Shown here: positions 26,759 through 46,249 of the stretch, one piece after another
Layout: every line of letters starts with the position of its first letter
Numbering within the stretch: the stretch's first letter is position 1
IMG/VR virus record: IMGVR_UViG_3300030104_003872
Span: 1 to 64,000 of that record
From: a virus
Length of the DNA stretch: 64,000 nt
Strand: one strand, 5' to 3'
Made by a program: the position numbers and the translations under genes
Notes under the pieces: model-generated
Told to the model about the DNA's origin: nothing
What the model saw: only the letters and a program-made list of their open reading frames with translations
Databases searched by the model: none

Positions 26759-26809
26759 TTAGTACCCCTTTTTCTTCTTCTTACTTATTTTTTTCTTTTT
26801 GTATGCCAT
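26759..26809 (-). CDS. Putative 16-aa poly-lysine micropeptide
   Basis: MAYKKKKISKKKKKGY*; ATG overlaps the portal stop (TAATG), GAGGTGA upstream. Confidence 0.5.
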   Translation of the reverse strand: MAYKKKKISKKKKKGY

Positions 26810-28224
26810 TATTCAGTCACCTCTTTATCTTGTTTGAGTGTATTATCACGAGGGTTGCGACCTTGCGGTGCAGTCTCTGGCTCAGGCTTAAAGTCCTCGC
26901 CTCCTTTAACCTTTTCCATGTGTACTATGTCTCTCGCCTCATTCTTCGTCATTAAGCCCATAGTATATCCGGTAGTTGCCCTTTTCATTGATTCACCCCT
27001 AGATTCTTCTTCTATTGGTTTGAAAGTCATTAGAGGTAAATCTTCTTTGGTTGCCTGTATTCCTAGTAATTCTAGGTGTTTCAAAAAGAGGTGACAACAT
27101 GATTCTATCGCTACCGCTTGAAGCCTTCTGATAGCATTTATACTCCACATAGAAGCAGAGTAGGTAGCCGCAAACGTCGAACCCCTTTCTTGACCTGCCG
27201 CGACCCTTGGTACTTGTAAAACTGCTGATATATCCCCATTTACTATGTCTAAGAAAGCAGTTGGGTCGGGGATAGTGTTTTTCAAATCAACGTGGTGCAT
27301 TTCAACATAGGAAGGAAGTATGGGTATCTGGTCACCCCTTAGTCCTTCTAGCAATTCTGCAACCTGCGTCATTATGTATGCTAGTCTTTGTTGTTGTTCG
27401 TCTGGGTCTGTGATATGTTCAACAGATTGTGCATCAATAGTAATGTATTGCTTAGTTAGTGCTTCTTCTAAGGCAATTCTGTTATTTATCATGTTGTATT
27501 TTGCTCGGATGGGTTGCTTTAGGCTTGAGAACCTAGAAGCACCCCAAACGCCGTAACTCCAGCGTCCGAGCCTATCTTGAAACCAATTGCTTCTGTAATC
27601 TATACGGGTGTGCCATATTTCGTCAGTAGGAAACTCTTGTGGATAAGTACCTTGCTCTTGTAGCATATAGAGCGTAGGCTTCATAATAGGTGACTCGCGT
27701 GTAACCGAAGGTGGTTGAATACCTCTGCTATCCTTTATAGTTATTTGATGAACAGGAAGAGATTGTACTTCTGTTACCCCAACCCCTGTCTTACCAACTA
27801 ACTTATTGATGTCGTTGCCATAAACCATTAGGTTACGAAGCATATTAATAAGAATATCATCAAAGTCAATTGCATACACAAATTGTTCGATAGCATTTCT
27901 AATTTTCCTATTCCTTCCTTTTGAATAGTCTATTTCCCAATTGTTAGCGGTCAGGCTTACTGAACGGACCGCACCATTCAACTCAGGGTCTAATTTTAAC
28001 ATTTCATCGTACAAATCGAACTCGTCATCATATTTTGTCCTTCCAAAAGACCTCTTGTGGTCACGAAGATGCTTTGTGTCCTCAAAAACATCAGATAAGC
28101 CCGCCACTTGTGCAAAACTCATAGGTCTATTTACTGCTACACGCTCGACACGCTTTTCTCCATCAATTTGACCGTCTTTTGGTGTAGAACGACGGAAGAA
28201 ATCAAATATTGACCGCTCAGCCAT
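26809..28224 (-). CDS. Portal protein
   Basis: 471 aa; LYDEMLKLDPEL, NLMVYGN, YGVWG.S, ISAVLQVP, MTKNEARDI portal-like motifs; first gene of the head operon. Confidence 0.85.
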   Translation of the reverse strand: MAERSIFDFFRRSTPKDGQIDGEKRVERVAVNRPMSFAQVAGLSDVFEDTKHLRDHKRSFGRTKYDDEFDLYDEMLKLDPELNGAVRSVSLTANNWEIDYSKGRNRKIRNAIEQFVYAIDFDDILINMLRNLMVYGNDINKLVGKTGVGVTEVQSLPVHQITIKDSRGIQPPSVTRESPIMKPTLYMLQEQGTYPQEFPTDEIWHTRIDYRSNWFQDRLGRWSYGVWGASRFSSLKQPIRAKYNMINNRIALEEALTKQYITIDAQSVEHITDPDEQQQRLAYIMTQVAELLEGLRGDQIPILPSYVEMHHVDLKNTIPDPTAFLDIVNGDISAVLQVPRVAAGQERGSTFAATYSASMWSINAIRRLQAVAIESCCHLFLKHLELLGIQATKEDLPLMTFKPIEEESRGESMKRATTGYTMGLMTKNEARDIVHMEKVKGGEDFKPEPETAPQGRNPRDNTLKQDKEVTE

Positions 28225-28304
28225 GACACTACCGAAAAGCCTTAACTGTTAAAAGGGTTCTGTTAAACCAAATCCTTAAATATGGATATACTTTCGGATA
28301 TACC

Positions 28305-29807
28305 ATGAGCGGCGAAAGAAGGATAGCACTAAGGGAAAAAACATTAAATTACATACGACCACATTTAGAGCATTGGACTGGAACTGATGCTCAGTTCGCT
28401 GATTTTCTTTACGAAGTTAATTATCTTCAGAAAGGCGAAGGACCTGCAAAACCTCTTTCTTGGAGAAACACAGTATCAAGATTTAGAAAACTATACCCTA
28501 GAGAAGCACCTATAAATGACATTTTCACTAATGGAAAAGAAATGTCTTTAGATGAAGCAGATGCAACATGGATTTCTGATGAACCTTACTATTACAATTC
28601 TGAAACCGATGTTTATGTTACTTTCATAAGGTCAGCAGGTAATAAGCCTGTTACAGTTAGTGGGGATGTTCATAGGGCAATGAAATCTGCTTATAGCAAC
28701 ATGGTCAACAAACCTTCAAGTATGAATCAAATATCTAGGGATTTTCAGATTCCCCGTGCATGGTTTGACGAATATAGACGAGTTCATGGTTGGACTCACG
28801 ATATGGACCCATTTACTAATGAAGAATTGAAAGATGCTGATTCAGTCGAAGACCTTGTTGATGAATTAGTGTTACGCCGAAGGCGTTCTCTACATATAAC
28901 TTATGAAAAGAAAAAGTGGGATGAAATACAAAAAGACGCTGAAAAATGGAGAGAATTTGAAGATACCTTTATCGAGCACCTAAAGATTCATAAACCGGAA
29001 CATAGAGAAGTACAAATGATTACTTTACAAGAAACTGACCCCTATGCACTTGTTATATCCCCCACAGACCTCCATTATGGAAAATACGGATGGGAAGATG
29101 AAGTAGGGGAAAGATATGACTTTGACGAAGCACGAAAAAGACTTCACGAAGCGACTAGTGCATTAATTTCAAGATTAGGCGGAACACCGGAAAAAATTAT
29201 AGTCGCGGCTGGCTCAGATTGGTTTCATGTGGATAATGACGGTGGCACAACAACTGCGGGTACTGCACAAGACAGATACGGTAGTCCGGCACAGATTTTG
29301 ATGCAGGGTTGTGAATTAGCAAAAGAGCACATAGATATGCTTAGAAGTGTTGCACCTGTTGAAGTTGTTTTCATGGCGGGTAATCATGACCGTCATTCAA
29401 CCTTAGCATTAGGGCTATTTTTGAAAGCAACTTACGAATCTTGTGATGACTGTACCGTTATTCTTGATGCAAACATGAGCAGACAGTATATTACCTATGG
29501 AAATACACTTTTAGGCTTTACACATGGAGATGGTGTGCGATTTAATCAATTACCTTCAACTATGGCTAAAGAACAATGGGAGAATTGGGGTAAGTGCCGA
29601 TATAAGGTATGGTTTTCCGGTCATCTTCATCATCAAGCCCTAAAAGAGCATGGTGGTGCGTTTTGTGTTCAATTACCTAGTCTTGCCGGACATGACCGTT
29701 GGCATCATAGAAAAGGATTTGTGAGCCAAGCCGGAATGTCTGCACATTTAATTGACCGCGAAGAAGGTATGATAGGAAGTATGTTTAAGCCCGTAGTCGA
29801 TGAGTGA
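28305..29807 (+). CDS. Calcineurin-like metallophosphoesterase with N-terminal extension
   Basis: DLHYG, GSDWFH, GNHD, HGD and GHLH motifs. Confidence 0.85.
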   Translation: MSGERRIALREKTLNYIRPHLEHWTGTDAQFADFLYEVNYLQKGEGPAKPLSWRNTVSRFRKLYPREAPINDIFTNGKEMSLDEADATWISDEPYYYNSETDVYVTFIRSAGNKPVTVSGDVHRAMKSAYSNMVNKPSSMNQISRDFQIPRAWFDEYRRVHGWTHDMDPFTNEELKDADSVEDLVDELVLRRRRSLHITYEKKKWDEIQKDAEKWREFEDTFIEHLKIHKPEHREVQMITLQETDPYALVISPTDLHYGKYGWEDEVGERYDFDEARKRLHEATSALISRLGGTPEKIIVAAGSDWFHVDNDGGTTTAGTAQDRYGSPAQILMQGCELAKEHIDMLRSVAPVEVVFMAGNHDRHSTLALGLFLKATYESCDDCTVILDANMSRQYITYGNTLLGFTHGDGVRFNQLPSTMAKEQWENWGKCRYKVWFSGHLHHQALKEHGGAFCVQLPSLAGHDRWHHRKGFVSQAGMSAHLIDREEGMIGSMFKPVVDE

Positions 29808-29813
29808 TTTACG

Positions 29814-29939
29814 GTGCTAGTGTGCGACTACTGTCAAGAAACGTCTATCTCCGCTCCTTATATGACTCATGACATTTACTTAAAGACATTGGGACTATGC
29901 CCCGTATGTGGGAAAAACGGAAGTGTAAGAAATGTCTGA
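29814..29939 (+). CDS. Small Zn-ribbon protein (41 aa, not in ORF track)
   Basis: GTG start; CDYC...CPVC; overlaps the terminase start. Confidence 0.5.
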   Translation: MLVCDYCQETSISAPYMTHDIYLKTLGLCPVCGKNGSVRNV

Positions 29940-31434
29940 TATACTAAGAGGATTTAATTTAGAGCGTTCAAGAACAGATTTTAAGCATTTTTATGAATGG
30001 GTTGGTTATGTTTGGGGCGACCACATAGGCGAATGGGATAAATTGTATCGTGATAGGCAAGAAGCCAATGTTCACCGTGTTTGTATCATTGCTCCGCGTG
30101 ACCACAGTAAGTCAACAACCTTAAGAATGGTAATGTTGCATCAATGCCTATTCAATACATGGCGAGACAAGCCTTTTACTATATGGTTGTTCTCTGCGTC
30201 TAAAGAATTGGCCGCTAACAGGCTCGAAGAAATACGAGGCGATATGATGCGTCATAGAGAACTTAGAAAGTTTATTGATATGCGAAGGGGTGGAAAACTT
30301 AACTTAAGATTCACAAATGGGGCATGGATTAAGGCTACCGGTATAGGTTCTGCTATTCGTGGTGAACATCCGGCTTGTATTGCTATGGATGACGTACTCG
30401 ATGATACAGGAGACATTACCCCCGAATCCACTAGGCATTGGTTTAGAAAAAAGATAACACCGATGCTTTCTCCCGGAACTTGGATGTATTGTGTCGGCAC
30501 ACCAATGGGAATGACTGATTTATACCACACCGAAATGCTAGAGAACCCTGCTTGGAAAACATGGCTCGGTTCTGCTTTCCCCAATTGGGATGAATGGAAG
30601 TCTGACCCCGATGGTGTGGATTTAGAATGCCTATGGCCGGAACATCGGTCACTAGACTTCTTGATGGAACAAAAACAGGCTATGGGGGATTTAGCATTCG
30701 TACAAGAATATCTTTGTAAGGTTGTGGATGAAGATGCTCAAGTTTTTACTAGGTACGATACGCGAGCACACTTAGAATCAACCGATATAATGATGACAGG
30801 TAAAGAATTAGATGGAAAATACGCCATAGGCTTTGACCCTGCACATGGATTGGGAAGAGACTATTCTGTAATGGTTGTTGTTAGGCAAGATAAGGATGGT
30901 GACCTTCATGTTGTTGATTTATGGAGACGTAATGATTTTCCCCCTGCGAAGCAGGTCGATGAGATTTTGTCTATGTGTAAAAAATATGATAATCCGGCTT
31001 TTGCTTGCGAAGATGCGGGATTCCAAAGGCTCTATGAACAATTATTGTTAGAAAGGGGGGCAATGGTGGACTTTAGACCTTCTAAGGTAAGTAATAAGAC
31101 ACTAAAACAGGCACTATTGAATAGGTTGCGTGTTTGGTTTGAACAACAGAGGATTCACTTTCCATTTGGGGATGATAAAACTAGAAGAAACATGAACATC
31201 ATCTTAGAAGAATTAGACCACCATGTATGGAAGCAAGGCGAGATTATGGACGTTGGGAGACACAACGATACAGTAATGGCTCTTGCACACGCAGTTGACC
31301 AGTTTTATTCGTGGGATAGGGGAGCACCTGTTGCTACCGGAAAGATTGAATCAAGTGGTTGGCTTCGACCGGATGGTGAATCTAAAGCACCAAGATATAG
31401 CAGACCGCAGACAGGACGCTACCGCATACTTTAG
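29932..31434 (+). CDS. terL: Terminase large subunit
   Basis: Walker A APRDHSKST, IRGEH..IAMDD Walker B, VGTP motif III, QEYLC, RNase H-like GFDPA..DYS and HNDTVMA. Confidence 0.95.
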   Translation: MSDILRGFNLERSRTDFKHFYEWVGYVWGDHIGEWDKLYRDRQEANVHRVCIIAPRDHSKSTTLRMVMLHQCLFNTWRDKPFTIWLFSASKELAANRLEEIRGDMMRHRELRKFIDMRRGGKLNLRFTNGAWIKATGIGSAIRGEHPACIAMDDVLDDTGDITPESTRHWFRKKITPMLSPGTWMYCVGTPMGMTDLYHTEMLENPAWKTWLGSAFPNWDEWKSDPDGVDLECLWPEHRSLDFLMEQKQAMGDLAFVQEYLCKVVDEDAQVFTRYDTRAHLESTDIMMTGKELDGKYAIGFDPAHGLGRDYSVMVVVRQDKDGDLHVVDLWRRNDFPPAKQVDEILSMCKKYDNPAFACEDAGFQRLYEQLLLERGAMVDFRPSKVSNKTLKQALLNRLRVWFEQQRIHFPFGDDKTRRNMNIILEELDHHVWKQGEIMDVGRHNDTVMALAHAVDQFYSWDRGAPVATGKIESSGWLRPDGESKAPRYSRPQTGRYRIL

Positions 31435-31637
31435 AATATGTACCATATTAGTAAAAACATACAGTCAAACCAAATGAAAAGCCAAATTAGGTCGTCTATC
31501 CAATCATTTTCCCCCATGTCAATGAATCTGAGGAACCACTTAGGTATTTTCATCAAACAATGATGCGTCCATAGAGCATATAGACTTATCTTTATAATGT
31601 CACTCCGAAAAAAATTAGAGAAAACTCTCGTAGGCAC
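31431..31637 (-). CDS. Possible small hydrophobic protein
   Basis: Trp/Phe-rich C-terminus; convergent with terL; start uncertain. Confidence 0.3.
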   Translation of the reverse strand: MPTRVFSNFFRSDIIKISLYALWTHHCLMKIPKWFLRFIDMGENDWIDDLIWLFIWFDCMFLLIWYIF

Positions 31638-31876
31638 TAGGCGGAGATATATGGGCTAAATGCGTGATTTATGGCCTTCTATTATATACTAAGGCCGTAT
31701 TTCACCATTTGCTGATATCGGATATTGGTGTTGTCCTTCGGGGCTTCGGACGAAAGCATCTGAACATAACAGGCTAGAATTAGCCTTCCGAATGCTTTGC
31801 CGGACACAAGATGGAAGGCGAATGGAATAAACAAACCAATCGGGCAAATAATCAACATCTGAAAGGTGAAGAAGCA

Positions 31877-32314
31877 ATGGCTAAGGCTAAGGCTAAGGCA
31901 CTATATCAGATGGATGCGGAAGAAGCGATTGCTTCGTTCAATAGTACCCGTGCTGACAACAGTAAGGGATTGGGCAAAGCAATAGTGCATAAGCCCCGAA
32001 TGCGTAAGGCATCCGGCAGTCATGTTATGATTGTTGATTTGTCTAAACTGCCTAAGGGAAGCACGGTTGAACACCATCTAGGCTTGGCAACAAGTAAGGT
32101 GAATGGGAAACCTGCTAAATATGCTTGCGTGTGTCTAACACACAATAGAAGCGTACTATGCACAACACGCCATCAGGCAACCTTCGGGGCAGTCTTTACT
32201 GCCCTTAAGGACGCTAGGACACCGAAGCAACTGATTCAGTCTAAGGGATTTACCCTAACTGATGGAATCGGTTGGTGTGATGGTTGTGTGAAGGCTTCAT
32301 TAGCATCTGTCTGA
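31877..32314 (+). CDS. Small basic Cys/His protein, paralog family member 1
   Basis: Start MAKAKAK after AAAGGTGAA; CVCLTH...WCDGC; distant similarity to 33403, 34261 and 41112 proteins. Confidence 0.75.
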   Translation: MAKAKAKALYQMDAEEAIASFNSTRADNSKGLGKAIVHKPRMRKASGSHVMIVDLSKLPKGSTVEHHLGLATSKVNGKPAKYACVCLTHNRSVLCTTRHQATFGAVFTALKDARTPKQLIQSKGFTLTDGIGWCDGCVKASLASV

Positions 32315-32498
32315 AATGTGTCTTGCCACTATTAGGTGAAGTGGGCTTCCGTAATATGCTAGATATGTATGCGTCAATGAACAGTCAATCAGACTAACCA
32401 AACGATACCCAAGATTAGCACCTGTACAGGATGGATTTCAATGGCTATATCCCGCCGTTAAATCCTGTATAGTTTGAAGCCCCTTCCCACACGAAACC

Positions 32499-32651
32499 AT
32501 GATTTTGAAAAGGTATTTTATTGAATGGCGTGATGGAACAATAACCGAAATTAGCATTGATGAATTGAAGCGATTAGATGAATCAGGATTCCCGAAATCC
32601 ATGCTTAATTTCATGGAATATCGGGCGTTTAGGAAGTGGTTGAAGGATTAG
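32499..32651 (+). CDS. Small hypothetical protein (50 aa, not in ORF track)
   Basis: MILKRYFIEWRDGTITEISIDELKRLDESGFPKSMLNFMEYRAFRKWLKD*. Confidence 0.55.
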   Translation: MILKRYFIEWRDGTITEISIDELKRLDESGFPKSMLNFMEYRAFRKWLKD

Positions 32652-32700
32652 GCCGAAAGGCCACCTTCTTCCCTTTTTTTTGTGTTTTTTCAGATTTTTT
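32651..32700 (+). terminator. Hairpin plus long T-tracts
   Basis: GGCC-GAAA-GGCC followed by three runs of 6-8 T. Confidence 0.65.
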
Positions 32701-32738
32701 GAATCTACCGCATAAAAGATGGTTAAAGCCTTCGGTCC

Positions 32739-32835
32739 GCCCCTGTGAGAGAACAAAGGTCCGGAGAAAAAAGGTCAGGAGAAAAAGGTCTGGAGAAAAA
32801 GGTCACGCTGACAAAGGTCAGCCCCTGTGAGAGAA
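32739..32835. repeat. Tandem AAAGGTC(N)GGAGA repeats flanked by direct GCCCCTGTGAGAGAA copies
   Basis: AAAGGTC occurs five times in 32755-32819 at ~14-15 nt period; the 15-nt flank occurs at 32739 and 32821. Confidence 0.85.
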
Positions 32836-32890
32836 AACACGAGACGCCACCCATGATGACGCCTCGCTTACGTTAGTCCTCTGTCTCGAT

Positions 32891-33079
32891 TCAATTCATC
32901 TCAACAAGTGTCTGAATTAAGCATTGCTCCAGTTGTTGCGGGGTCATCTCTGCGTTTATGCCGAGGTCTATTGGTGTTCTCACTAGAGTTGTTATTACAC
33001 CTTCCTGACGCCCGTCGTCTCCAACGACTGCGTGTTGCACGATTTTCGCGGTCACTTCTCCTATCTTTATTTTTCTCAT
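32891..33079 (-). CDS. Small hypothetical protein
   Basis: Own TATA (TATATATA ~33135) and GAGG RBS. Confidence 0.55.
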   Translation of the reverse strand: MRKIKIGEVTAKIVQHAVVGDDGRQEGVITTLVRTPIDLGINAEMTPQQLEQCLIQTLVEMN

Positions 33080-33402
33080 TTCATTTCCTCCTATGGGCTT
33101 TCCGCCCTACCTCCTCATGGAAGCCATAGTATATATACTTTGTGTATTTACGACCTCCACCTGAGAACTCTTTCTCGGCTCGGGGTGAGGCCCCCAAAAA
33201 GTAGTGTCGGGGAGAGAGAGGCTCGGGGAGAGGCCCTAAAAGACGCTCTCTCGCCCGGTCCGCCCCCGAGTAGGCGTTTGAGTGCGAGTCGTGATGCCAG
33301 ACCGCCCCTCCGAGATGTCGTGGCTGAGTCGTACGTTTCTCCGGAGACCGCAATGTTTATAACCCCCTACCCCTACAGCGAGGTAGGCCAAGAGGCCGGG
33401 AG

Positions 33403-33750
33403 GTGAAAAATCTGGAAACTGAGAATTACTGGGAGAACTGCGAGAGAAAGACAGGAGCGGCGCTCGGAAAGTTGGGAGTCAAGACCGCCAAGAGTATTGG
33501 CGTAAAAGGAGCATGGACTCTAAAATACCGAGGCAAGGCAAAAATACTCGTTGGTTGCATGAGGAGAGTTGAATCCGAGTGGGCTGACAAGAGTATTCTG
33601 AACGAGAAAAAGGACAGAGTTGCTGAGCACGTTACAGTCTGTGAGCACGGAGTGGCAGTTGGAGCATCCACGAGAAAGGTTGCGATAGAGCTGGCTAAGA
33701 AATCCGAGCACTGGTGCGAGAAGTGTGCCGCGAGAACCGCCGTCCTTTGA
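33403..33750 (+). CDS. Small basic protein, paralog family member 2
   Basis: GAWTLKYRGKA..VGC..HVTVCEHG..VGASTRKVAIELA...WCEKC. Confidence 0.8.
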   Translation: MKNLETENYWENCERKTGAALGKLGVKTAKSIGVKGAWTLKYRGKAKILVGCMRRVESEWADKSILNEKKDRVAEHVTVCEHGVAVGASTRKVAIELAKKSEHWCEKCAARTAVL

Positions 33751-34260
33751 GACGCGACGTAAATCCAATGACCCCCGAAAGGGGCGAGGATGTACTCTCT
33801 GGGGTCACGACTCTCTAGTATTGAGGCTCGACCCTATTTGCACAAAGGTCGGGGGGTCACGACTCCGCCCCTTCTCGACCCTAAACGCACAAAGGTCAGA
33901 AGCCTCCGGGTCCGCCCCAGAGAGAGAAGGCTCGATTCTCACTCATCTTAACCCCTAACCCGAGAACTCGAGCGTTTCTCCGTGTGCGGGCGGGCGAGCG
34001 AGTACTCAAATGTATGACATAAAAGGACCCTGAGCCGACGGGTCACGCCCCACGACTCACTGCTCATCACGACACGCATCTCAGGAGAGGAGCACGTTTT
34101 TTTAGTGGGAGCACAGGTCACCAGAGCCCCCCTACTCTACACGAGCGGACCCTAGAAGGCTTGAGCCCCTCAGGAATCTCGTGGGTGATGAGCTCCGGCA
34201 GGTATTTCTCCCACCAGAGCCTTTACGTCATCTCGAATAACTATCTCGGGGATAGAATAC

Positions 34261-34668
34261 TCAGACGCTCGCATCCTTGATGCTCTGTCTTGATTTCTCA
34301 CACCAGATGTGAGCCAGTTTGCATAGCTCGATTGCTTTCTTTCTCGATGATGCTCCCATCACTGACCCATAGTCTGTGACCGCAACATGAGTTGGTGCAA
34401 CCATCTCGCCATTTACGAGAATGGTCATGCCTTTGGTCGCTTCGGTAACTTGCTCATCCGCGTTCTCCACGAAAATGCAACCGACCCGACATCCAGCCTT
34501 CCTTCTCATCTTCAAAGTCCATGCTCCGGCTCTTCCGATGGTTCTCGCAGTCTTGGCTCCGTCCTTGCCGAGATGTGCTCCAGTTGAAACTGTTGCTCCA
34601 TCCCAATACATGGTCGGGGTTTTCTCTGCTTTACTGCTCTTCTTAGTGCTCTTACTAGTTTTGCTCAT
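34261..34668 (-). CDS. Small basic protein, paralog family member 3
   Basis: GAWTLKMRRKA..VGC..HVAVTDYG..MGASSRKKAIELC...WCEKS. Confidence 0.8.
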   Translation of the reverse strand: MSKTSKSTKKSSKAEKTPTMYWDGATVSTGAHLGKDGAKTARTIGRAGAWTLKMRRKAGCRVGCIFVENADEQVTEATKGMTILVNGEMVAPTHVAVTDYGSVMGASSRKKAIELCKLAHIWCEKSRQSIKDASV

Positions 34669-34902
34669 AAAGTTCTCCTCCTTGTCTCCAATACGTGTCT
34701 CCGAGTCACGGTAAGGTTCTCATTCAATGTCATTCTCATCGTCCGCCCTACATGACCAGATAGAAGTTATAGGATATAAAGTTTTCGGACTCTTGAGTTA
34801 GACCGCCCTCACCGTGAGAGTAGTGGAGAAGTCGTAATGTTTTCACTCGAGTTGTCGATGCCTACGTAAAAGAGAACAGGGAGGCAATTCTCCGCCCCTG
34901 TC

Positions 34903-35331
34903 TCAATCTCTTCTAGTTTGACCATATAGCCGAGATTCAAATGCTTGCTCGGCTTGTTTCTCTAGTCTCTGTACTTCTGCGTGCTCGTCAATTTTCTCTA
35001 GTACCTCTGCCACATCTTTCTCGGCCTGTCTCTTATTGTATATCTCCCAAACTTTGTCGGTTACGTTTCTCTTAACCATTTCTCCGAAGTGTCTCCATTG
35101 TCCCTCGTTTATGATATCTCTAGTCTTGTCATCAGTCAATGACCCAAGACCCATGTGTGATAATTTCTCCATTAGAGAATCTATTACGACCGGACTGTCA
35201 TGGAGTTTATCGTACTCTATTGAGTATATTTTGTCTATCTCATTTATTGTGAGTACGTCATCGGTATTTCTCCGGAGGTCTAATCTCCAACCTCTGCTGA
35301 AATAGGTCCATTTTATCTCAGAGTATGACAC
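34903..35331 (-). CDS. Hypothetical protein
   Basis: 142 aa ORF downstream of a boxed promoter. Confidence 0.6.
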   Translation of the reverse strand: MSYSEIKWTYFSRGWRLDLRRNTDDVLTINEIDKIYSIEYDKLHDSPVVIDSLMEKLSHMGLGSLTDDKTRDIINEGQWRHFGEMVKRNVTDKVWEIYNKRQAEKDVAEVLEKIDEHAEVQRLEKQAEQAFESRLYGQTRRD

Positions 35332-35478
35332 CTATCTCCACCAACAGTCGAAATGTTCAGGCTCAATCGTTTCCTTCTCGGACTTGGTGGCTCCTTTCTT
35401 AACGAGAACCACTCGCCCCTTAAAGAGTTTATTAGCCAACTCTTTTGTTATCTCATATTCATTACTTCTCAATTTCAT
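35332..35478 (-). CDS. Small hypothetical protein (48 aa, not in ORF track)
   Basis: MKLRSNEYEITKELANKLFKGRVVLVKKG...FDCWWR*; AGGTGA RBS; first gene after the 35551 promoter. Confidence 0.55.
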   Translation of the reverse strand: MKLRSNEYEITKELANKLFKGRVVLVKKGATKSEKETIEPEHFDCWWR

Positions 35479-35672
35479 TTCTCTATTTCACCTTTCCTCG
35501 GCCTTCCGGCCTACTCTGAGGATGGAAGTCATAGGATATAAACATTTCTGACTCTTGAGTTGTCGCGTGTAGCGTAATAATTTACTCGAGTTGTCGATGA
35601 CTACACAAAAGGTCTTGCTCTTGACGACTCCGCCCCAACTCTACCGCGTGAGGCAAAGGGGGTATCTCGCAA

Positions 35673-36485
35673 TCACTCGTAATGCGGAGAATCCGCGTAC
35701 TCGTAAAGACCAGTTATAGGTTCGACCTTATAGAAGTGCTCTTTTGCACAGACCCATCCGGTCGGTGTATATCCCTCGGGATAAGTCGAACTAACTGTCT
35801 CGTCACCGCCTAGAGATTCCCAATCCGGCTCCCATTGTGCTCCATTCGCTCGCCTGTCTTTTATCTCTTGTAACCATTGTATTCTCTTAAGTTCTCTGAG
35901 AACGGCATAGGCTTCTCGGAATGTATTAAGTGGTCCGAGGAAAGCATCGTGGCTCACAATAGAGCGATACCATCCGCCCTCCTCTGGTCCGCCGTATGCT
36001 CTTACTTTCTCGTACCTGCTCACATATATTTGGTCGCCGTGATTCTTCTCCCAATAACCTTCCTCGGGGAAGAAATCGTACTCACCTTCTTTGAGCAGAT
36101 ATAGTTTCTCCATACCTGAGCCAGCGTAATGCCATCTCTGATAGTCCCACTGCTCTTTGCGGTACTCGTAAAGTGTAACGAGCCAGTCGCCGTTGATACT
36201 CTGATATTTATCTCCTATTCGCTCAGGAAGACCATTTTCGTCTTGTTCTCTGCAATATTGCTCAAACGCCTGTTGCTCAGTCTGATGTCGAATTCTCTTC
36301 TGCTTGTGCTCACGCCTTGACTCGCTATGCTTTAGGTCATAGACCCAAGCACGAGTGGATAGCAATGTTCTCGCTAAACCGGTCAGTTCTGCATTCTCTT
36401 CAAAACTTCTCTTTTCGTCGTATAATTCTTTCTCTTTCTCGTAATCTGTCATATTTTTCTCACCTCCCTTATGGTCTGACTCCAT
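35673..36485 (-). CDS. Hypothetical protein (Tyr/Trp/Glu-rich)
   Basis: Contains YGGPEEGGWY motif; probable start MTDYEK. Confidence 0.65.
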   Translation of the reverse strand: MESDHKGGEKNMTDYEKEKELYDEKRSFEENAELTGLARTLLSTRAWVYDLKHSESRREHKQKRIRHQTEQQAFEQYCREQDENGLPERIGDKYQSINGDWLVTLYEYRKEQWDYQRWHYAGSGMEKLYLLKEGEYDFFPEEGYWEKNHGDQIYVSRYEKVRAYGGPEEGGWYRSIVSHDAFLGPLNTFREAYAVLRELKRIQWLQEIKDRRANGAQWEPDWESLGGDETVSSTYPEGYTPTGWVCAKEHFYKVEPITGLYEYADSPHYE

Positions 36486-36503
36486 TTCATTGTATTCTCT
36501 TGA

Positions 36504-36860
36504 TTATAACTCATTAACTGCATCTCTTAATTCGACTTCATTGGCTATTCGAGTTGCTTCTCGATGTGCCTTTAATCTCCGGATGTAACTCCTATCTTCT
36601 TTCTCTAATGTATCGAACTCTTCACCTGCGAATCTCGCATAGTTGGTCAATAATGCGTGGAGATTAATACGATGCACTCCGCAACTATATCTCATTAGTT
36701 TTAACGAGTGCCTATCTCCCTTCATGGGAGATGATTGCATCTCTAATAGTTCGACCTGTAAGTCAAACTCTTTCATTTTCTCTAGTAACTCTTTCTGTAA
36801 CTCAACTGCTCTAATCATAGAGTTTATGAGTTCCATTTCTTCATCCTCCGTTTCCGCCAT
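36504..36860 (-). CDS. Hypothetical coiled-coil protein (leaderless)
   Basis: ATG about 23 nt after the TATA of the boxed promoter at 36898. Confidence 0.65.
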   Translation of the reverse strand: MAETEDEEMELINSMIRAVELQKELLEKMKEFDLQVELLEMQSSPMKGDRHSLKLMRYSCGVHRINLHALLTNYARFAGEEFDTLEKEDRSYIRRLKAHREATRIANEVELRDAVNEL

Positions 36861-36989
36861 GTAGAGGTATAGGGGTTCTAGGTATTAAACCTTTCTAACT
36901 CCTGAGTATCCTCAGAGAATGATAGATTTACTCGAGTTGTCGATGGGTTGGTAAAAGAGAATAGGATTGTGAATCTCCGCCCCACACGA

Positions 36990-37466
36990 CTAGTAATTAA
37001 AATCGGTCAGGGGAAAGTCATTCTCTTCGACTATCCTTTCGTTGTTCTCAAAGAACTTCCTCACATGCTCAAGACCTATCAGATGGGCTCTACCGGACTT
37101 ACTTCTATTGTCGATAACTGATGGGTCATCTGCAAACTGCTCGTTCAGTATGCTCAGATATAATCTCTTAGCCACATCATACTCTTGAGGTTTCCATAAT
37201 AAGACCTCTTCTGTCTCGACATATCTTTGCTCAGTTCTAAATCGAGTGTTGATTCGCTCTAATTGCTCATCATCCATGATTTCTCTGCTTCTGAGCAGAA
37301 TAAAACCATGCTCATGATGACCTAGTTCCTCGTCATAACTCTTATTCACAGACCATATTAAATCTCTTAATTCAGATTTCTCTTCACCAGTTCTGCTCAT
37401 CCATGAACGAGCAAGTGATTGTGGTGTCGTGTGTCGCCACTCTGTACGTGACCTGACCAAAATCAT
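36990..37466 (-). CDS. Hypothetical protein
   Basis: 158 aa ORF in a minus-strand cluster. Confidence 0.55.
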   Translation of the reverse strand: MILVRSRTEWRHTTPQSLARSWMSRTGEEKSELRDLIWSVNKSYDEELGHHEHGFILLRSREIMDDEQLERINTRFRTEQRYVETEEVLLWKPQEYDVAKRLYLSILNEQFADDPSVIDNRSKSGRAHLIGLEHVRKFFENNERIVEENDFPLTDFNY

Positions 37467-37546
37467 CCTGTCCTCTGATATTTTATACTCGTATTCGTCT
37501 ATCTCTATTCACCTCCTTTAGACTCCAAATCTCCCATCTATGAATC

Positions 37547-37885
37547 TCATTGCAGAGAACTTTCCTTCTCTTGCTTTTGCATCTCGTACATCATCTTTCT
37601 CCCTTCTATACGAGCCTTCCACATAGAGATACCAAAACTCATTGCTTGTTGTCTCTTTTCCATATCCTCATCAAACGGGTCCATACCCATTCTCGCGGGT
37701 AAGACCATAGTGGCGTCGCATAAGTCGCAACATCTCGAATCGAAATCTTTTGGGTCAGCAAGGAGTGGGTAGGGATTATTACCCATGTATTCTCCGGTCT
37801 TGAATAATAACTCGTTGGTATGAGGGTGTCTTGGTCCCTTAATCTCTTTCTTACAGAGACAACACTTAAGATTACTCTTCCTCAT
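37547..37885 (-). CDS. Zn-binding hypothetical protein
   Basis: CCLC...GNNPYPL...RCCDLCD. Confidence 0.65.
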   Translation of the reverse strand: MRKSNLKCCLCKKEIKGPRHPHTNELLFKTGEYMGNNPYPLLADPKDFDSRCCDLCDATMVLPARMGMDPFDEDMEKRQQAMSFGISMWKARIEGRKMMYEMQKQEKESSLQ

Positions 37886-38069
37886 CGTTGATTGCTCCTT
37901 CTAATAGTCGTCGAATGACACTAGGGTCAATAGCAGACTCTTTGATAAGAGCCATAAACTCTTCGGCCGTTTGACCTGTTGCTACCGTTTCGCCTGTCTC
38001 TTTGCTTACAACTCTGAATAAAGGAGCATCCGCACCCGCATTCTCTGTCTCTACATCAATTACGGTCAT
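37872..38069 (-). CDS. Small acidic hypothetical protein
   Basis: Coupled to 37885 gene; GGAG RBS. Confidence 0.55.
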   Translation of the reverse strand: MTVIDVETENAGADAPLFRVVSKETGETVATGQTAEEFMALIKESAIDPSVIRRLLEGAINDEEE

Positions 38070-38390
38070 ACTTATGCACTCCTAGCCTCATACTGTTTTT
38101 TGGTCAGTCCATACCTTCTCAGGTAATATTTGTCGTTCATCTCTTCAATCATATTTCTCATCTTGTTGCTCATCTTCTATTCGCTCCTGTTTCATGTGGG
38201 CTCGCCACGCTAATATCTCTATATGTATTTTACTCATCTACTTTCCTCCTTATCCTTAAATACTCATGGCAGGGCTCGCAAAGAGTTGCACTCTCACCTG
38301 CCCGACCTGAATGGAAATCAGTCGGCATATTACCGACAACCCACCATGACTCGGCATGGAATAAGTCGTCACCACATTGGTCGCAATAGG

Positions 38391-38522
38391 TCATTCTAAA
38401 TCATACTCCTCATATACCCACTCTGGGGTTTCTAGTCGAAACTTGAATCTGGTCACCAAGAGTTTATTCCGTAGTCGGGAATACTTAACTCGGGTGATGT
38501 TTCCATCGTCGCCGTCCGCCAT
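38391..38522 (-). CDS. Small hypothetical protein (43 aa, leaderless, not in ORF track)
   Basis: MADGDDGNITRVKYSRLRNKLLVTRFKFRLETPEWVYEEYDLE*; directly after the 38560 boxed promoter. Confidence 0.5.
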   Translation of the reverse strand: MADGDDGNITRVKYSRLRNKLLVTRFKFRLETPEWVYEEYDLE

Positions 38523-38715
38523 ATCTACCAATTATCGTCTTAGGATATAAAGGTTTTGGACTCTTGAGTTATGGTGTATTTTAACTCGAGTTGTAGGTTA
38601 TAGTAGTAAAAGGTTCGGTAGAGCACTACTCCGCCCCAACTCAAGAGTTGGAAAGGTTTATATTCTAGTTAGATGATTCCCTCATGTAGCGGAAGCACAG
38701 GAGACATCAGATAAA

Positions 38716-39417
38716 ATGAGTGAAAATGAAAACAGAGTAATTGAACAAGAGACAGAGCGTGAAGCAGGTAAGAGTATAACCCTGACCTTCACACCTATCG
38801 GAGCAATCATAGATTCCGAGAAAGAAAGCAAAGTACAAGAGCAAGATGAAAATGCAGACCTGTTCTTTATGAGAAGTATCAACACGACCTTCGGGTTCAA
38901 GATGTTGAGAAACTCATGGGATAGTGAGCACGACATCAAAGCAGGAGCAACTGAGACTAATACCAAGAGTACAAATGGACTAAGAATCGGAGATACAACC
39001 GTGACGAGTTTCATAACATCAGAGTTGGAGTGGTTCAAAGAGGCACTAATGCCTCTGCTTATCGACCAAAGTGATGTGGAGATAATCCAGACCACTAAGG
39101 AAGAGATAGTAATAGTTGAGCCACTAGGCAGATACGAGCACTTCGGTTGGGACGAGACACCAGAGTGGGCTGATGAAAGAGTAACCCTCGAATACATCGA
39201 CCTTCGTAATGGTAAGGCCTCTATTCTCGTACAAGGCGAGACAGGTTCTGACCTTCAAGGGGATGAGGTGAACGAGGCAGTTAAGGGCTACCACGATATG
39301 CTTATGAGTACCATCAGAAGTATGACCTGCACAGACGAGAATGAATATAGCAGAGATTGTAAGAGTTTGCTTAAAGTGGAGTCTCATAGAGTTTGCGACA
39401 CATCCTTCTTGAATTGA
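38716..39417 (+). CDS. Acidic hypothetical protein
   Basis: 233 aa, Glu/Asp-rich; boxed promoter at 38639. Confidence 0.7.
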   Translation: MSENENRVIEQETEREAGKSITLTFTPIGAIIDSEKESKVQEQDENADLFFMRSINTTFGFKMLRNSWDSEHDIKAGATETNTKSTNGLRIGDTTVTSFITSELEWFKEALMPLLIDQSDVEIIQTTKEEIVIVEPLGRYEHFGWDETPEWADERVTLEYIDLRNGKASILVQGETGSDLQGDEVNEAVKGYHDMLMSTIRSMTCTDENEYSRDCKSLLKVESHRVCDTSFLN

Positions 39418-39535
39418 GTTCTTTGGGGGAGAGAACTTCGTAAGCCTCGGCGTGGGTAAATCTCACGCTGAGGTGAAACATCTTATGCTCTCAGTAGGAG
39501 GAACGATAGGATGACAGACCTGAAACTTCGAGGGG

Positions 39536-40735
39536 GTGATGAGAATGTCAGATGAAAGAGGATTAATACCTTACTCTAACAAAGAAGAGATGATTCTCGC
39601 TATGCAAGATTTGTCGGATGAAATGCTTAAGGTAGGTCACGATAATGTGGAAGAGTTCCTAGCACTCGTAAAACAAGAGATGTGGGATAGAGAACACGCT
39701 ATGGTGGTCACATACAATGAAGAGTTCAAAGAAAAGTGGGCTCATGTATTCGACTTATTTAACGAAGGTTGGTCTATATTAAGAGAACTATACCAAATAT
39801 GCGAGGACTATGATGGAGATAATAATTTTATCACAGAGAAGAATGAGCATCCGAATTATCCTCATTGCGAGTTAGAAAAGGCTTGGGTCGTAAGATACGA
39901 GTCATTTTTAGCAAGAGCAAAAGATATGCCTAGTCGTGGTTATACACATGAGGGACCATATGGAACTCTAGTATTCAGAGAAGAATATCTAAAAGAGTTG
40001 GATTTAGAGTCTTATTGGGCGACTACATATTCAACGGAGATAGCAAGGAGATTGGAGCCTAAAGAGAAGGACTTAAAGTATGGTCTTACTTTTGCTCATT
40101 ATCCTACAGACCCTTTCAAAGAGGAAGAGGAATACATCGAAGATTGGAGCAGATACAAATATGTTAGAGATACTAAGATAGAGGCCTTTGATAAAGTCGT
40201 ATATTTCTTGAGAAATGTTATGGTTAAGTCGGAGACAAAGGATATAAGACCTTCACAAAACGACGATTGGAAAACCAATGAGCTCAAACACTATAATCTC
40301 GAAACACATCAGTTAGAGAGACCTTTAGAGTGGAAGATAATAGAGGATGAGCAGATAGTGGGTGCTATTTACGGTAGAGGTAGGAGCGATAATAAATATG
40401 CGACTTGTTTCGACTGTGATGAAAATGGTCGAAATAGATTAGCCGTGAGAACATATTACGAGCGTGGGTATCAAGAGATGCCAGGAGCTCCTGTTCATGC
40501 TACATGCGAGTACTTTACTTGTATGAGATGTGGAAGTGAGCGTAAAGGTGGAGAACATGGAGATTTCCCTGTTGGTGGAGTTGACTTAATAGGTCAGCCA
40601 CTCTTTGCAGGTATGAGCACAGAAGAAGTATGTCGTCAATGCTCATGTTATACTACCAAACAGTACGGTGGTAGCGGAGAACGAGGAAGCGATAGGGAGT
40701 GTTGGGCTTGCTATGGAGAACCCGGTCATTACTAG
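39536..40735 (+). CDS. Hypothetical protein with C-terminal Cys clusters
   Basis: CFDC, CMRC, CRQC and CWAC motifs. Confidence 0.7.
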   Translation: MMRMSDERGLIPYSNKEEMILAMQDLSDEMLKVGHDNVEEFLALVKQEMWDREHAMVVTYNEEFKEKWAHVFDLFNEGWSILRELYQICEDYDGDNNFITEKNEHPNYPHCELEKAWVVRYESFLARAKDMPSRGYTHEGPYGTLVFREEYLKELDLESYWATTYSTEIARRLEPKEKDLKYGLTFAHYPTDPFKEEEEYIEDWSRYKYVRDTKIEAFDKVVYFLRNVMVKSETKDIRPSQNDDWKTNELKHYNLETHQLERPLEWKIIEDEQIVGAIYGRGRSDNKYATCFDCDENGRNRLAVRTYYERGYQEMPGAPVHATCEYFTCMRCGSERKGGEHGDFPVGGVDLIGQPLFAGMSTEEVCRQCSCYTTKQYGGSGERGSDRECWACYGEPGHY

Positions 40736-41111
40736 ACAGGTCTGGTGGTAGAGATACCGCCATTCCTCTCACTCTAAGATAAAAGAAAAGAGCGCTCCTC
40801 TCTCCGCCCCTTGAGAGAAGAAGGTGGTGGGTCTAGATTGCAGTATGCCTACCCAGCAATGTCTCCCCGACCCACCGAAAGGAGTATTAGGTGGAGGCTT
40901 ATCCGACTTGTTACCGCCTGTTTTAGACTCACTTCCTCGTTGCATTTCTGCCTCTTTCGAGATAAGGGTAGTGTGCGGCTCGGTTACGGTTTGGTCTACC
41001 ACCTGTTTATGTAGACTCGCCCCCTTTTTGTATGCTCCGTCATGTACCCGTTCTCATGGTGGACGGAGCCACACCATGTGGTCGTTTCGTGCGGAAGAAC
41101 GCTCGAATTGT

Positions 41112-41591
41112 CTAAGCAGTCGCTTTAACTTCTGTCTCTGTGACTTCTGTCTCAGCCTCTGCCGTTGCTTTAGCCTCTTCCTCGGCTTTCGCCTTAGCCT
41201 CGGCTAATTTCTCCACTATCTTTTGAGCCTTGTTGCTCCATGTGGCCGGATGTCTCGCTAGTTCGAGTGCCTTTTTCCTTGAAGTTGCTCCGTGCTTCTG
41301 GAGAATCTTCATTTTTAGGTCTTTTGCTCCCTTTTCGTGAGTTCCTGTGATAACGACTGTATGCTTGTCTGGTCTGTTACAGATAGGCTCGTCAGATGCC
41401 TCGGTTAAGTAAATTCTCACTTGCATACCTCCAATCTCCTGACAACCCTTCTCACGCCACAATCCTCTGATGCCGTAAAGGTCAACATTAGAGTGTCCGT
41501 GTGTTTCTGTATCTCCCTTAGACCACTTTGGGATAGGTTTCTCATCTTCTGTGGTCTTTGATTCTGATTTAGTCTCTTTCTTTGTGCTCAT
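41112..41591 (-). CDS. Small basic protein, paralog family member 4
   Basis: HTVVI...HGATSRKKALELARHPATWS; Ala/Glu/Lys tail; GAGGTGA RBS; boxed promoter 41674. Confidence 0.75.
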   Translation of the reverse strand: MSTKKETKSESKTTEDEKPIPKWSKGDTETHGHSNVDLYGIRGLWREKGCQEIGGMQVRIYLTEASDEPICNRPDKHTVVITGTHEKGAKDLKMKILQKHGATSRKKALELARHPATWSNKAQKIVEKLAEAKAKAEEEAKATAEAETEVTETEVKATA

Positions 41592-41884
41592 AACATTTCA
41601 CCTCCTCGGGGTTTCGCAGTCCTCCCGCTTCGCATATCTACAACTACATTTATCTAGTATATATAATGTTCTAACTCTTGAGTTGTGCTTGAGTTGTAGC
41701 CTACTGCCTTACTACTAGAGTAGATACTACGCGTGTAGTGAGTGAGTGCTCTTATTATTGGTAAAAGATTCGGTAGAGGTATTCTCCCGCCCGTAACTCG
41801 TGAGATGGAAACATTTATGTGCCGTCAAGATATATTAGTAGATATGTACGGTACGACGATAAGTTTTACACAGGAGGCTGAATA

Positions 41885-42313
41885 ATGAAATGCGAGGCAA
41901 TGGGGTGCGACAGCGAGGCTACGCTTATGTGTCACCAGAGTTACTTATGCGAGGGTTGTGGTGTTGAGATGGCGAAGGCGACAGGCCACGATACTCAACC
42001 TATTATACTGTCGTCTGTACTCAAAACTATGAGTGAAGAAGAAAAGGAGTTTCTTGACCCACTTACTGTTCTTGTCGATGACGAAGAGCATGACCACCGC
42101 ACATTTGATTTACAAGATGTCGGTACAATTGACCACATAGTACCTACTAATGGTTTGACCATATTCCATGAGCCTATTGTCATGGCGAGGTGCGTTCATT
42201 GTGAGGCATACGCTATCGGTCATATCAACAAGGTAGGAGGTTGGTTCGCGAGACACCAACACTACCACACGCACGCAGAGGCAAATGATGACGACTTTGC
42301 CATGCCGTCGTGA
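41885..42313 (+). CDS. Cys/His-rich hypothetical protein
   Basis: C..GC...LCEGC; CVHC...HQHYH. Confidence 0.65.
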   Translation: MKCEAMGCDSEATLMCHQSYLCEGCGVEMAKATGHDTQPIILSSVLKTMSEEEKEFLDPLTVLVDDEEHDHRTFDLQDVGTIDHIVPTNGLTIFHEPIVMARCVHCEAYAIGHINKVGGWFARHQHYHTHAEANDDDFAMPS

Positions 42314-42376
42314 GTTCAAAAACTTTATATCCTAGAATTAATTATTGGTAGTATAGCGGAAGCGGAGGAAAGTATA

Positions 42377-44571: not shown

Positions 44572-44801
44572 GAAAATACATAGATGCGACTTAGAGATTA
44601 TTGGTTTTGATTATGACCAAAAGAAATGGGAGGTCACAGAACACCTCCGATGTAAAGAGTGCGGTGCTAGAGCAACAAAGATAGTAAAAGAGGTATATGT
44701 TCTTGACTCTTACTCAAAAAATATTAAGACATAGCCGGTAGCGACGTCTACTTGACTCAAGAGTCAGCAATGTTTATATCCTAGTTTGATATTTTGGTAG
44801 T

Positions 44802-46034: not shown

Positions 46035-46104
46035 GTAAAAAGAAATTGAGTAAAGATGGGTTAGAGATATTTGAGTTCAAACTACCATCAAAGGAGGAAG
46101 AAGA

Positions 46105-46248: not shown

Positions 46249-46249
46249 A

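Follow-up and report, generated by a model that had tools for sequence, protein, structure and literature searches.

A GAG/CTC-free segment abutting a GAG/CTC-saturated block in a viral genome: a possible virus-written DNA modification word

Introduction

Chloroviruses encode methyltransferases and nickases with short recognition motifs, among them M.CviQII/Nt.CviQII (RAG) and M.CviPII/Nt.CviPII (CCD). The pac site of phage P1 contains seven GATC-containing hexamers, GATC clusters are likewise present at oriC and such bacterial and phage clusters span 100–300 bp. In phage T5, the termini have been mapped, the terminal repeats measure 10 kb and DNA transfer has been demonstrated to occur in two steps. 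In the Autographiviridae (T7, and Murciavirus with respect to the Type I restriction–modification system Mme2I), the leading regions, which are injected first, are motif-free (PMC12455610). Here, we describe the distribution of the trinucleotide GAG and its complement CTC (GAG/CTC) in a stretch of 64,000 nucleotides (the window), positions 1–64,000 of the IMG/VR virus record IMGVR_UViG_3300030104_003872. A segment of 1.1 kb that is devoid of the word (31647–32746, referred to as the desert) abuts a block that is saturated with it (32747–49400). We propose that recognition of GAG/CTC takes place on double-stranded DNA, the most probable reason being that the virus modifies this word.

The complete record (labelled G000 here) is 75,290 bp in length and is classed as complete by CheckV; the window is its first 64 kb. 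In the source sample of run X1, the k-mer depth is ∼15×. Bases 1–98 recur at 75192–75289 with a sole mismatch at the very last base, and this 98-bp head–tail overlap identifies a circular-type assembly of ∼75,191 bp. The ends of the record cut a long minus-strand open reading frame (ORF; 2–2773, open-ended) and, being intragenic, do not represent physical termini. The large terminase subunit (TerL) served as the anchor gene for finding relatives, and 19 related loci were found in other metagenomes.

Results and discussion

The GAG/CTC-free segment

The main features are as follows.

29932–31434, + strand: TerL, large terminase subunit (PF17289 Terminase_6C, 3.6e-07; phrog_38, 7.8e-45)
31647–32746, both strands: GAG/CTC-free desert, 0 sites versus 23–30 expected; predicted to be one self-contained transcription unit
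32747–49400, genes leftward at 33–38 kb and rightward at 38.7–49.4 kb: GAG/CTC-saturated block, mostly small orphan genes

An earlier note, made from the sequence alone, had reported that no GAG or CTC occurs between the sites at 31644 and 32747, had put the expectation at 25–30 sites and had observed that all Glu codons in between are GAA; computation reproduces each of these points. The gap is 1103 bp long, compared with 468 bp for the second largest gap in the window, and the expected number of sites is 29.9 from base composition or 23.3 from a first-order Markov model. Both ORFs of the desert encode Glu by GAA only and also leave the Leu codon CTC unused, and for the longer of the two (145 residues) synonymous resampling alone predicts 9.1 ± 2.4 sites. 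Comparison of 3-mer counts with synonymous and codon-shuffled controls upholds both the depletion in the desert and the enrichment in the block. Of all 3-mers, it is GAG/CTC that shows the largest gap in the genome after normalisation, namely the desert (29 times the mean spacing). Other large 3-mer gaps are located in GC-rich repeat ORFs at 14–22 kb and can be attributed to composition, whereas the GC content of the desert is ordinary (0.44). GAG/CTC gaps of 468 and 393 bp elsewhere are within chance at 18 sites per kb.

All relatives with a TerL that is 80–91% identical and with enough downstream DNA share the desert and the block. The desert is 1002–1463 bp in length in L003, L004, L006, L007, L008 and L012 and is incomplete in L002. 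In these relatives it begins 49–215 bp after terL, and beyond it the density leaps to 25–50 sites per 500 bp. The desert segments are mutually 37–55% identical in DNA sequence (two close pairs excepted), with a GC content of 0.39–0.61. Six independent segments, which share 40–55% of their nucleotides and amount to 7104 bp when pooled, contain 0 GAG/CTC sites versus 136 expected from dinucleotides, and the observed/expected ratio (O/E) of every other 3-mer in the pool is at least 0.78. The selection against the word that had been suspected from the window is thus shown to be strong by six independent and nearly unalignable relatives, all at zero, and the desert is conserved by selection and not by descent. 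Relatives with a TerL identity of 67% or less (L013–L019, including the complete 73.8-kb genome G003) have neither desert nor block, and in G003 no comparable desert or block was found for any 3-mer.

The GAG/CTC-saturated block

The block (33.0–49.4 kb) contains ∼55 sites per kb compared with ∼18 per kb elsewhere. The values for consecutive kilobases within 33–49.4 kb are 83, 72, 65, 64, 57, 52, 59, 60, 53, 46, 40, 48, 52, 51, 47, 46 and 31, and those outside range from 11 to 31, with a mildly depleted background (O/E 0.7–0.9). The earlier count of seven sites at 33421–33480 is exact, and the elevated density after the desert is real; its end is located at ∼49.4 kb and not at ∼48 kb as had been estimated. 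The proposal that this neighbouring segment is selectively loaded with the motif is supported by codon, non-coding and spacing signals. GAG/CTC is the only strongly deviating 3-mer in the block (3.05-fold). Since all 4-mer contexts of GAG are raised to a similar extent, the 3-mer itself is the enriched unit, and a longer motif behind the enrichment is ruled out. GAG accounts for 63% of Glu codons in the block versus 26% in the background and CTC for 22% versus 5% of Leu codons, with barely any change in the Lys, Gln and other codon families; overall, the sites amount to 2.0 times the expectation from protein sequence and background codon usage. The enrichment is threefold for sense GAG, 2.7-fold for sense CTC and 2–6-fold for non-coding GAG and CTC. 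It is a DNA-level property that involves all frames, both strands and non-coding DNA.

This symmetry bears on an explanation at the RNA level, in which an endoribonuclease of the RegB, MazF or MqsR type would cut GAG (or CUC), such that the block mRNAs would be short-lived and the desert transcript immune. Motif-less transcripts are a known signature of mRNA-interferase immunity, T4 RegB cuts GGAG in early mRNAs and the desert coincides with a predicted transcription unit. However, GAG and CTC are both absent from both strands of the desert, including the DNA upstream of the promoter and that of the terminator, the block enrichment is symmetric and extends to non-coding DNA, the structural and replication mRNAs carry ∼18 sites per kb and the AGCT/GAGCTC pattern described below is not addressed. 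The strand symmetry and the inclusion of non-transcribed DNA make this explanation very improbable.

The spacing of sites was compared with synonymous shuffles that retain the codon usage of each gene. The block contains 738 sites versus 640 ± 10 in the shuffles, with spacings of 2–7 bp depleted (z = −7.7) and those of 13–20 bp in excess (z = +9.9). The independent blocks of G002 and G001 reproduce the 13–20 bp excess (z = +8.1 and +5.5, respectively) and show a weak 2–7 bp depletion (z = −1.9 and −1.8, respectively). In the blocks of three genomes the coefficient of variation (CV) of the inter-site distance is 0.65–0.76 and the largest gap is 84–94 bp, whereas G003 is Poisson-like (CV of 1.05). 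A Fourier scan of the block site positions revealed no helical period of 10–11 bp or other dominant period. Homologous enriched blocks are present in G001, G002 and G006. Orthologous block genes with 65–67% nucleotide identity have ∼40% of the site positions in common and retain the density, and in G000, G001, G002 and G006 alike the density peaks beside the desert and diminishes further away.

In the replication module (49400–69000), close GAG/CTC pairs are strongly depleted with respect to the shuffles (19 versus 71 at 2–7 bp and 19 versus 52 at 8–12 bp). The depletion, which concerns pairs less than ∼20 bp apart, exceeds that in G003 and gives the impression that the word is kept from clustering outside the block.

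A mutational or compositional origin was also considered, either through hypermutable modified sites decaying in the desert in the manner of CpG or through import of the block with foreign codon usage. The mild background depletion would suit such an origin, as would the fact that the desert and the block are the fastest-evolving parts of the genome. On the other hand, 0 of 136 would require destruction of sites to exceed creation by more than 100-fold, and the equally fast block keeps ∼55 sites per kb and ∼40% of their positions. The enrichment is specific to GAG/CTC, with no general shift in codon usage or in GC content at third codon positions, and regular spacing, non-coding enrichment and upkeep in four diverged genomes also argue against it. 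We consider this origin hardly credible.

The repeated boxes that the earlier note had assigned to this region are indeed concentrated there: nine of the ten copies of ACTC-NN-GAGT and all four copies of ACTCGAGT lie in the block. The former are located at 34789, 35551, 36898, 38560, 38639, 41674, 42766, 44755 and 47235. The palindromic ACTC-NN-GAGT precedes nine block promoters, on either strand, at a fixed distance of 8 nt from their TTTATAT box, and three copies are found in G002; together, the two elements would define a block-specific promoter regulon. Individual features of the block and its right edge are as follows.

42940–44571, + strand: SF2 helicase (PF04851, 4e-20; PF00271, 3.3e-16; phrog_16, 6.2e-51)
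44802–46034, + strand: ArdC-like anti-restriction protein (PF08401, 6.5e-23; PF18818, 2.5e-34; phrog_7245, 8e-67)
49390–49396, + strand: TTTATAT box without ACTC-NN-GAGT, before the gene at 49420–49881 and at the right edge of the block; putative promoter

The ArdC-like protein consists of an ArdcN domain and a zincin peptidase domain. The saturated block is probably an early or host-interaction module. Small basic proteins encoded at 33403–33750, 34261–34668 and 41112–41591 are mutually related (46% and 23% identity).

Surviving restriction sites and the methyltransferase cassette

Several palindromes are purged from G000: GATC occurs 0 times versus 234 expected, AGCT 12 times versus 233 and GCGC twice versus 90. 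All 12 AGCT sites and both GCGC sites overlap GAG/CTC. Across the clade, after de-duplication, 50 of 50 surviving AGCT sites overlap the word, of which 40 are GAGCTC, ten are one-sided (GAGCT or AGCTC) and none is unflanked, compared with unconstrained expected shares of 4, 33 and 62%, respectively. Two-sided AGCT is near its expected frequency and one-sided AGCT is rare, which fits a mark on one strand per GAG, with only GAGCTC protected on both strands. In G006, six of six AGCT sites are overlapped by GAG/CTC. AGCT-avoiding relatives without the methyltransferase described below keep almost no AGCT or GAGCTC (0 versus 155 expected in G003 and ∼0 at ∼50 further loci). Restriction sites that overlap the word are therefore tolerated and those that do not are purged in the case of AGCT, but not in the case of GATC or GTAC.

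The sole two GCGC sites of the genome (33460 and 40792) are both GCGCTC. This pair is a weak indication that modification affects the base pair formed by C1 of CTC and G3 of GAG, although GTACTC and GATCTC are not tolerated in relatives.

The purged palindromes differ between close relatives: GATC, GCGC and AGCT in G000, GATC, GTAC and AGCT in G001, GATC, GTAC, CTAG and AGCT in G002, and GATC and AGCT in G003; some relatives of the RFC group, obtained by scanning viral contigs with an RFC profile, avoid neither AGCT nor GATC. These differences suggest that the hosts have different restriction repertoires. GATC and AGCT methylation has been reported in metagenome-assembled genomes of marine archaea (PMC8919816) and is a plausible form of host restriction–modification pressure on these viruses. 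GAG/CTC does not itself behave as a word avoided because of host restriction–modification, being threefold enriched over the 16.4 kb beside the desert. The earlier note had listed a host defence factor, a bulky virus-made base modification and a DNA-binding protein of the virus as agents that might recognise GAG/CTC. The second gains independent support, as AGCT survives only within GAGCT/AGCTC and only in the clade that carries the methyltransferase cassette. The cassette comprises three genes.

60660–61838, + strand: N6/N4 DNA methyltransferase (PF01555, 6.1e-10), candidate writer of a GAG/CTC mark
61829–62791, + strand: DUF2156/LPG_synthase_C-like (GNAT-type) protein (PF09924, 2e-05, below the curated cut-off); overlaps the end of the methyltransferase gene
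63141–63644, + strand: nucleoside 2-deoxyribosyltransferase-family (NDT-like) protein (PF05014, 1.8e-11), the third clade-specific gene of the cassette

Orthologues of the methyltransferase are 88–95% identical across the clade (92% in G001 and 66% in G006), and the presence or absence of the DUF2156-like gene parallels that of the methyltransferase. The replication module of G003 is syntenic, yet lacks the methyltransferase, DUF2156-like and NDT-like genes, and a few small unannotated ORFs are also unmatched. G003 also lacks the desert protein, the desert, the block and most of the block genes, and no DNA-modifying function is predicted for any of the other genes that it lacks. The more distant G006 has the cassette together with a block homologue that climbs to 53 sites per kb at its broken end. 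The three-gene composition suggests a modification more elaborate than simple methylation. No relative of the methyltransferase with a solved structure was found by sequence. Distant homologues in viral contigs of 86–289 kb (L041–L044) are accompanied by no GAG/CTC anomaly and no GAGCTC rule and therefore say nothing about the specificity of the enzyme.

A GAGCTC-specific methyltransferase would account for most of the surviving AGCT sites but leaves unexplained the ten one-sided versus no unflanked AGCT sites and the coincidence of the word in the desert and the block.

The desert unit and the junction array

The desert and its flanks contain the following elements.

31435–31646, + strand: terL–desert intergenic element; TTTATAA box at 31591–31597, then CACTCCGAAAAAAA...AACTCTCG; partly conserved in relatives
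31680–31689, + strand: TATA-like box TATTATATAC, ∼35 nt inside the left edge of the desert, without an ACTC-NN-GAGT box
31877–32314, + strand: desert gene 1, encoding a 145-residue basic protein; the database form begins at the same ATG
32499–32651, + strand: desert gene 2, a putative coding ORF of 50 residues; related ORF in L007 (...I.LDELKR...)
32651–32700, + strand: GGCCGAAAGGCC hairpin and long T runs; candidate terminator at the end of the desert unit
32734–32835, + strand: junction array with four 14–15-bp tandem repeats AAAGGTCNGGAGAAA (32755–32821)

The last GAG/CTC sites before the desert (31603, 31618, 31625, 31627 and 31644) are all located in the intergenic element. This element is also found upstream of the desert in L003, L004, L006, L007, L008 and L012, and is possibly a promoter, a terminator or a packaging site. 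Relatives carry a conserved ttcT(T/A)TATAT box at the same offset in the desert, and the TATTATATAC box is a candidate promoter of the desert unit. With the 145-residue gene, the 50-residue ORF and the candidate terminator, it appears to make the desert one transcription unit.

The 145-residue protein is conserved in position, with a sequence identity of 31–50% among relatives whose TerL proteins are 80–91% identical. Alignments reveal the invariant residues R41, R43, C86, T88, H89, R98, W133, C134 and C137, of which C86, T88, H89, C134 and C137 indicate a probable zinc site. The family is clade-restricted, with ten cluster representatives found by a profile search of 1.8 billion proteins and three proteins found by a k-mer homologue search. 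The protein matches no Pfam, PHROG or NCBIfam family, and a search of the ESM Atlas yielded sub-threshold matches only. Two AF2 models (pLDDT of 60 for the first and 87 for the second) have no fold match in the PDB (best Z of 4.0 and Foldseek E of at least 1.4 for the second). In a comparison with the small terminase subunit (TerS), no Pfam or PHROG match was obtained and no TerS chain was among the structural matches listed. Paralogy with the small block proteins is unsupported (hhalign probability of 0.6%). The 50-residue ORF has no significant family.

The AAAGGTCNGGAGAAA array is bounded by 20-bp direct repeats GGTC[CA]GCCCCTGTGAGAGAA, and the first GAG past the desert (32747) is inside the left of these. 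Related GGTCCGCCCCTGTG...GAGA elements are located at the same junction in L004, L006, L007 and L012, and related GGTCCGCCCC...GAGA elements are likewise found there in relatives. This iteron-like array may function as an origin, in packaging or in regulation, and its ∼100 bp (32734–32835) could also represent a methylation-site cluster of the pac/ori type. The presence of iteron-like repeats at the desert/block junction would suit a role of GAG/CTC as the priming or initiation word of a primase or another replication enzyme, enriched or excluded as needed, and three-base recognition is typical of primases (GTC for T7 and GTG for pRN1 PrimPol). Such a role would give no reason for the domain borders to track promoters and would leave the GAGCTC-only survival of AGCT unexplained, and no primase was identified among the genes scanned; we regard it as a most improbable explanation.

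Alternatively, a DNA-binding protein of the virus might coat the block, or regulate it by early shut-off or activation, with no covalent mark involved, with the desert escaping it and the sparse modules avoiding cooperative binding. The even 13–20 bp spacing and short-range exclusion resemble a footprint, the depletion of site pairs closer than 20 bp in the replication module would fit avoidance of such binding, the domain borders coincide with promoters and the palindromic ACTC-NN-GAGT is placed 8 nt from TTTATAT at the block promoters. However, survival of AGCT only as GAGCT(C), confined to the methyltransferase-bearing clade, is left unexplained, incoming DNA would be unprotected unless the binder were packaged, and cooperative binding should leave room for isolated sites in the desert, of which there are 0 in 7.1 kb. 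In addition, no candidate reader was found, and the desert protein is without a fold match. We therefore consider a binding protein rather improbable as the agent.

The location of the desert beside terL allows a further possibility, raised in the earlier note, namely staged entry of the DNA with a fixed end at the terL/desert border. The desert would enter first, invisible to a host factor that recognises the (modified) word and that its product would neutralise, the block would follow and the remainder would enter later, in the manner of T5 first-step transfer or T7 transcription-coupled entry. This is compatible with modification of the word, to which it would add a physical mechanism. The all-or-none constraint on the desert suits a threat of the cleavage type that acts before an inhibitor exists, the site density is highest beside the desert and declines with distance (G000, G001, G002 and G006), and the block contains the ArdC-like anti-restriction gene. 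The desert is also hypervariable, as are known leading regions (PMC12455610). Against staged entry, the assembly is of the circular type and a Logan contig from the source run spans 27000–34587 (terL, desert and block) unbroken; other runs contain identical stretches that are short. Furthermore, some members of the Terminase_6C family package by the headful mechanism, in which there is no fixed leading end, and a terminus at the junction array (32734–32835) would make the desert the last segment to enter while fitting the data equally well. Staged entry is thus, in our estimation, unlikely.

Proposed model

The reading that we favour, tentatively, is that GAG/CTC is a DNA modification word written by the virus itself, with the methyltransferase at 60660–61838 as the candidate writer and with three domains of mark density that follow transcription units. 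Members of the clade would mark their own genome at GAG/CTC, on one strand per site, by means of this N6/N4 methyltransferase, and the product may be elaborated by its two clade-specific neighbours. The first domain would be the mark-free unit (31647–32746), with its fast-evolving orphan protein of putative zinc-binding type and the 50-residue ORF. The second would be a 16.5-kb early or anti-defence block with ∼1 site per 18 bp, evenly spaced and with gaps of at most ∼90 bp, and the third would comprise the replication and structural modules, with sparse sites.

The saturated block may serve as generic armour or as a self-label for DNA that acts before the other counter-defences of the virus exist. 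Its coverage-type spacing implies that the selected property is the absence of long unmarked stretches, and this, taken with the ArdC-like gene and the promoter regulon, suggests that early-acting DNA is protected or labelled. The mark-free unit could be a bootstrap gene set for conditions under which even a single mark would be detrimental. The mark might expose the DNA to a modification-dependent host nuclease at a time when no inhibitor has been made, whether or not entry is staged, or it might hinder a host transcription machinery that is still unaided. The per-site, all-or-none constraint implies that a single site in the desert is harmful, and, since isolated sites are tolerated in the other modules, a cleavage or blocking event is likelier than cooperative binding. 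A more specific version, which we hold to be doubtful, is a layout like that of CpG islands around a self-written 3-bp mark, in which the block, with a site kept at least every ∼90 bp, would shield against site-specific or guide-directed defences in the initial minutes after infection. The mark-free unit would then have to be read, or to escape detection, at a stage when the mark is not yet tolerable, and would perhaps be the leading end in a staged entry of the DNA of an archaeal virus.

Several points weigh against the favoured reading. The link to the methyltransferase represents essentially one evolutionary gain (including G006), such that co-inheritance with other clade genes is possible. 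Protection is not general, as GTACTC and GATCTC are not tolerated in relatives. A methyltransferase specificity of 3 bp is rare, and a conventional GAGCTC-specific enzyme would account for 40 of the 50 surviving AGCT sites; what favours the 3-mer over GAGCTC is only the ten one-sided versus no unflanked sites (P of ∼2.5e-5) and the coincidence of the word in the desert and the block. The term 'early' would follow only from gene content and promoter boxes, and the idea of armour alone gives no reason for zero marks in the desert.

If the model is correct, the density of the virus's own modification is programmed by genome domain (zero, saturating or sparse) instead of being uniform. Modification would then be a positional code tied to the infection timetable and not a blanket anti-restriction trick, and unmarked DNA would be required for the synthesis of one product, a small orphan protein family. 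The computational signature, consisting of a k-mer desert beside an evenly spaced saturated block and of the survival of overlapping restriction sites, can be searched across viral metagenomes and may bring to light modification motifs as well as early or leading regions of viruses that have not been cultured, among them archaeal viruses, for which infection mechanics are almost unknown.

Gene layout and host

The remaining features of the genome are as follows.

1 up to the portal gene (26809–28224, included), − strand: structural genes
28305–29807, + strand: Mre11-like exonuclease
From 49.4 kb: replication module with RFC-like AAA+ protein, candidate clamp, methyltransferase, DUF2156-like protein, NDT-like protein and PolB
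50476–50973: T4 endonuclease V-type pyrimidine-dimer DNA glycosylase (PF03013, 3.2e-06), just past the right edge of the block
59633–60460: candidate clamp gene, assigned from its position and from a homologous gene in the syntenic G003 module; without a family match

The pyrimidine-dimer glycosylase is kept in G003 and is therefore outside the clade-specific system. The presence of an RFC-like gene, a candidate clamp, PolB and TATA-type promoters points to an archaeal host, and G000 is the genome of a marine tailed virus, probably one of archaea. A host search by means of RFC homologues matched virus-like contigs only. The closest cultured relatives of TerL are ∼24–25% identical and include Paenibacillus phages, which have direct terminal repeats, a point in favour of staged entry. 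Scans of the 64-kb window with Rfam (gathering thresholds) and for tRNAs found no RNA genes. Two minus-strand ORFs at 13625–19060 (1811 residues) and 20192–22780 (862 residues) have a GC content of 0.49–0.58 in a genome of 0.42, contain long stretches without A-rich 3-mers and carry GAG mostly in codon frame 2; they probably encode repetitive tail, fibre or tape-measure proteins.

Comparison with known systems

Neither a GAG/CTC mark nor the desert/saturation layout was found in a search of the earlier literature. One near parallel is the leading region of the Autographiviridae, which is likewise a short hypervariable region of anti-defence type, located where the early genes begin and free of a motif that is tolerated elsewhere. 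Here, the desert DNA is hypervariable next to a TerL that is 80–91% identical, and the adjoining block contains an ArdC-like gene, as in leading regions of the T7/T5 type. In the Autographiviridae, however, the motif is a host restriction–modification site of 6–8 bp that is simply absent, whereas the present word has 3 bp, is too short and frequent for such a site and is probably the virus's own modification site. In the adjoining 16 kb, moreover, it is enriched and occurs at even intervals, and first entry is a proposal here. Ordered delivery with a first segment that carries pre-early genes and acts before the remainder, as in T5 (bioRxiv 10.64898/2026.04.02.716235), is likewise a proposal for the present virus.

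Chloroviruses resemble the present clade in having virus-encoded N6/N4-type methyltransferases and a word of 2–3 bp used genome-wide, with the specificity and chemistry being putative here. To our knowledge, domain-wise exclusion or saturation of a word has not been reported in chlorovirus genomes, and we know of no motif desert or saturation in T5. As in T4 RegB/MazF systems, a short word (3–4 nt there) is enriched in putative early messages and absent from a protected gene, but the signal here is strand-symmetric, extends to non-transcribed DNA and is not confined to the sense strand. In P1 pac, oriC and vertebrate CpG islands, as would be the case here, function resides in how densely a methylation word is placed locally. 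Unlike the compact clusters of P1 pac and oriC, the present enrichment spans 16.4 kb, is mostly coding and is regularly spaced. As in CpG islands, the density domains align with transcription units; CpG islands are unmethylated dense regions of a depleted genome, whereas here a unit of zero density directly abuts a saturated one.

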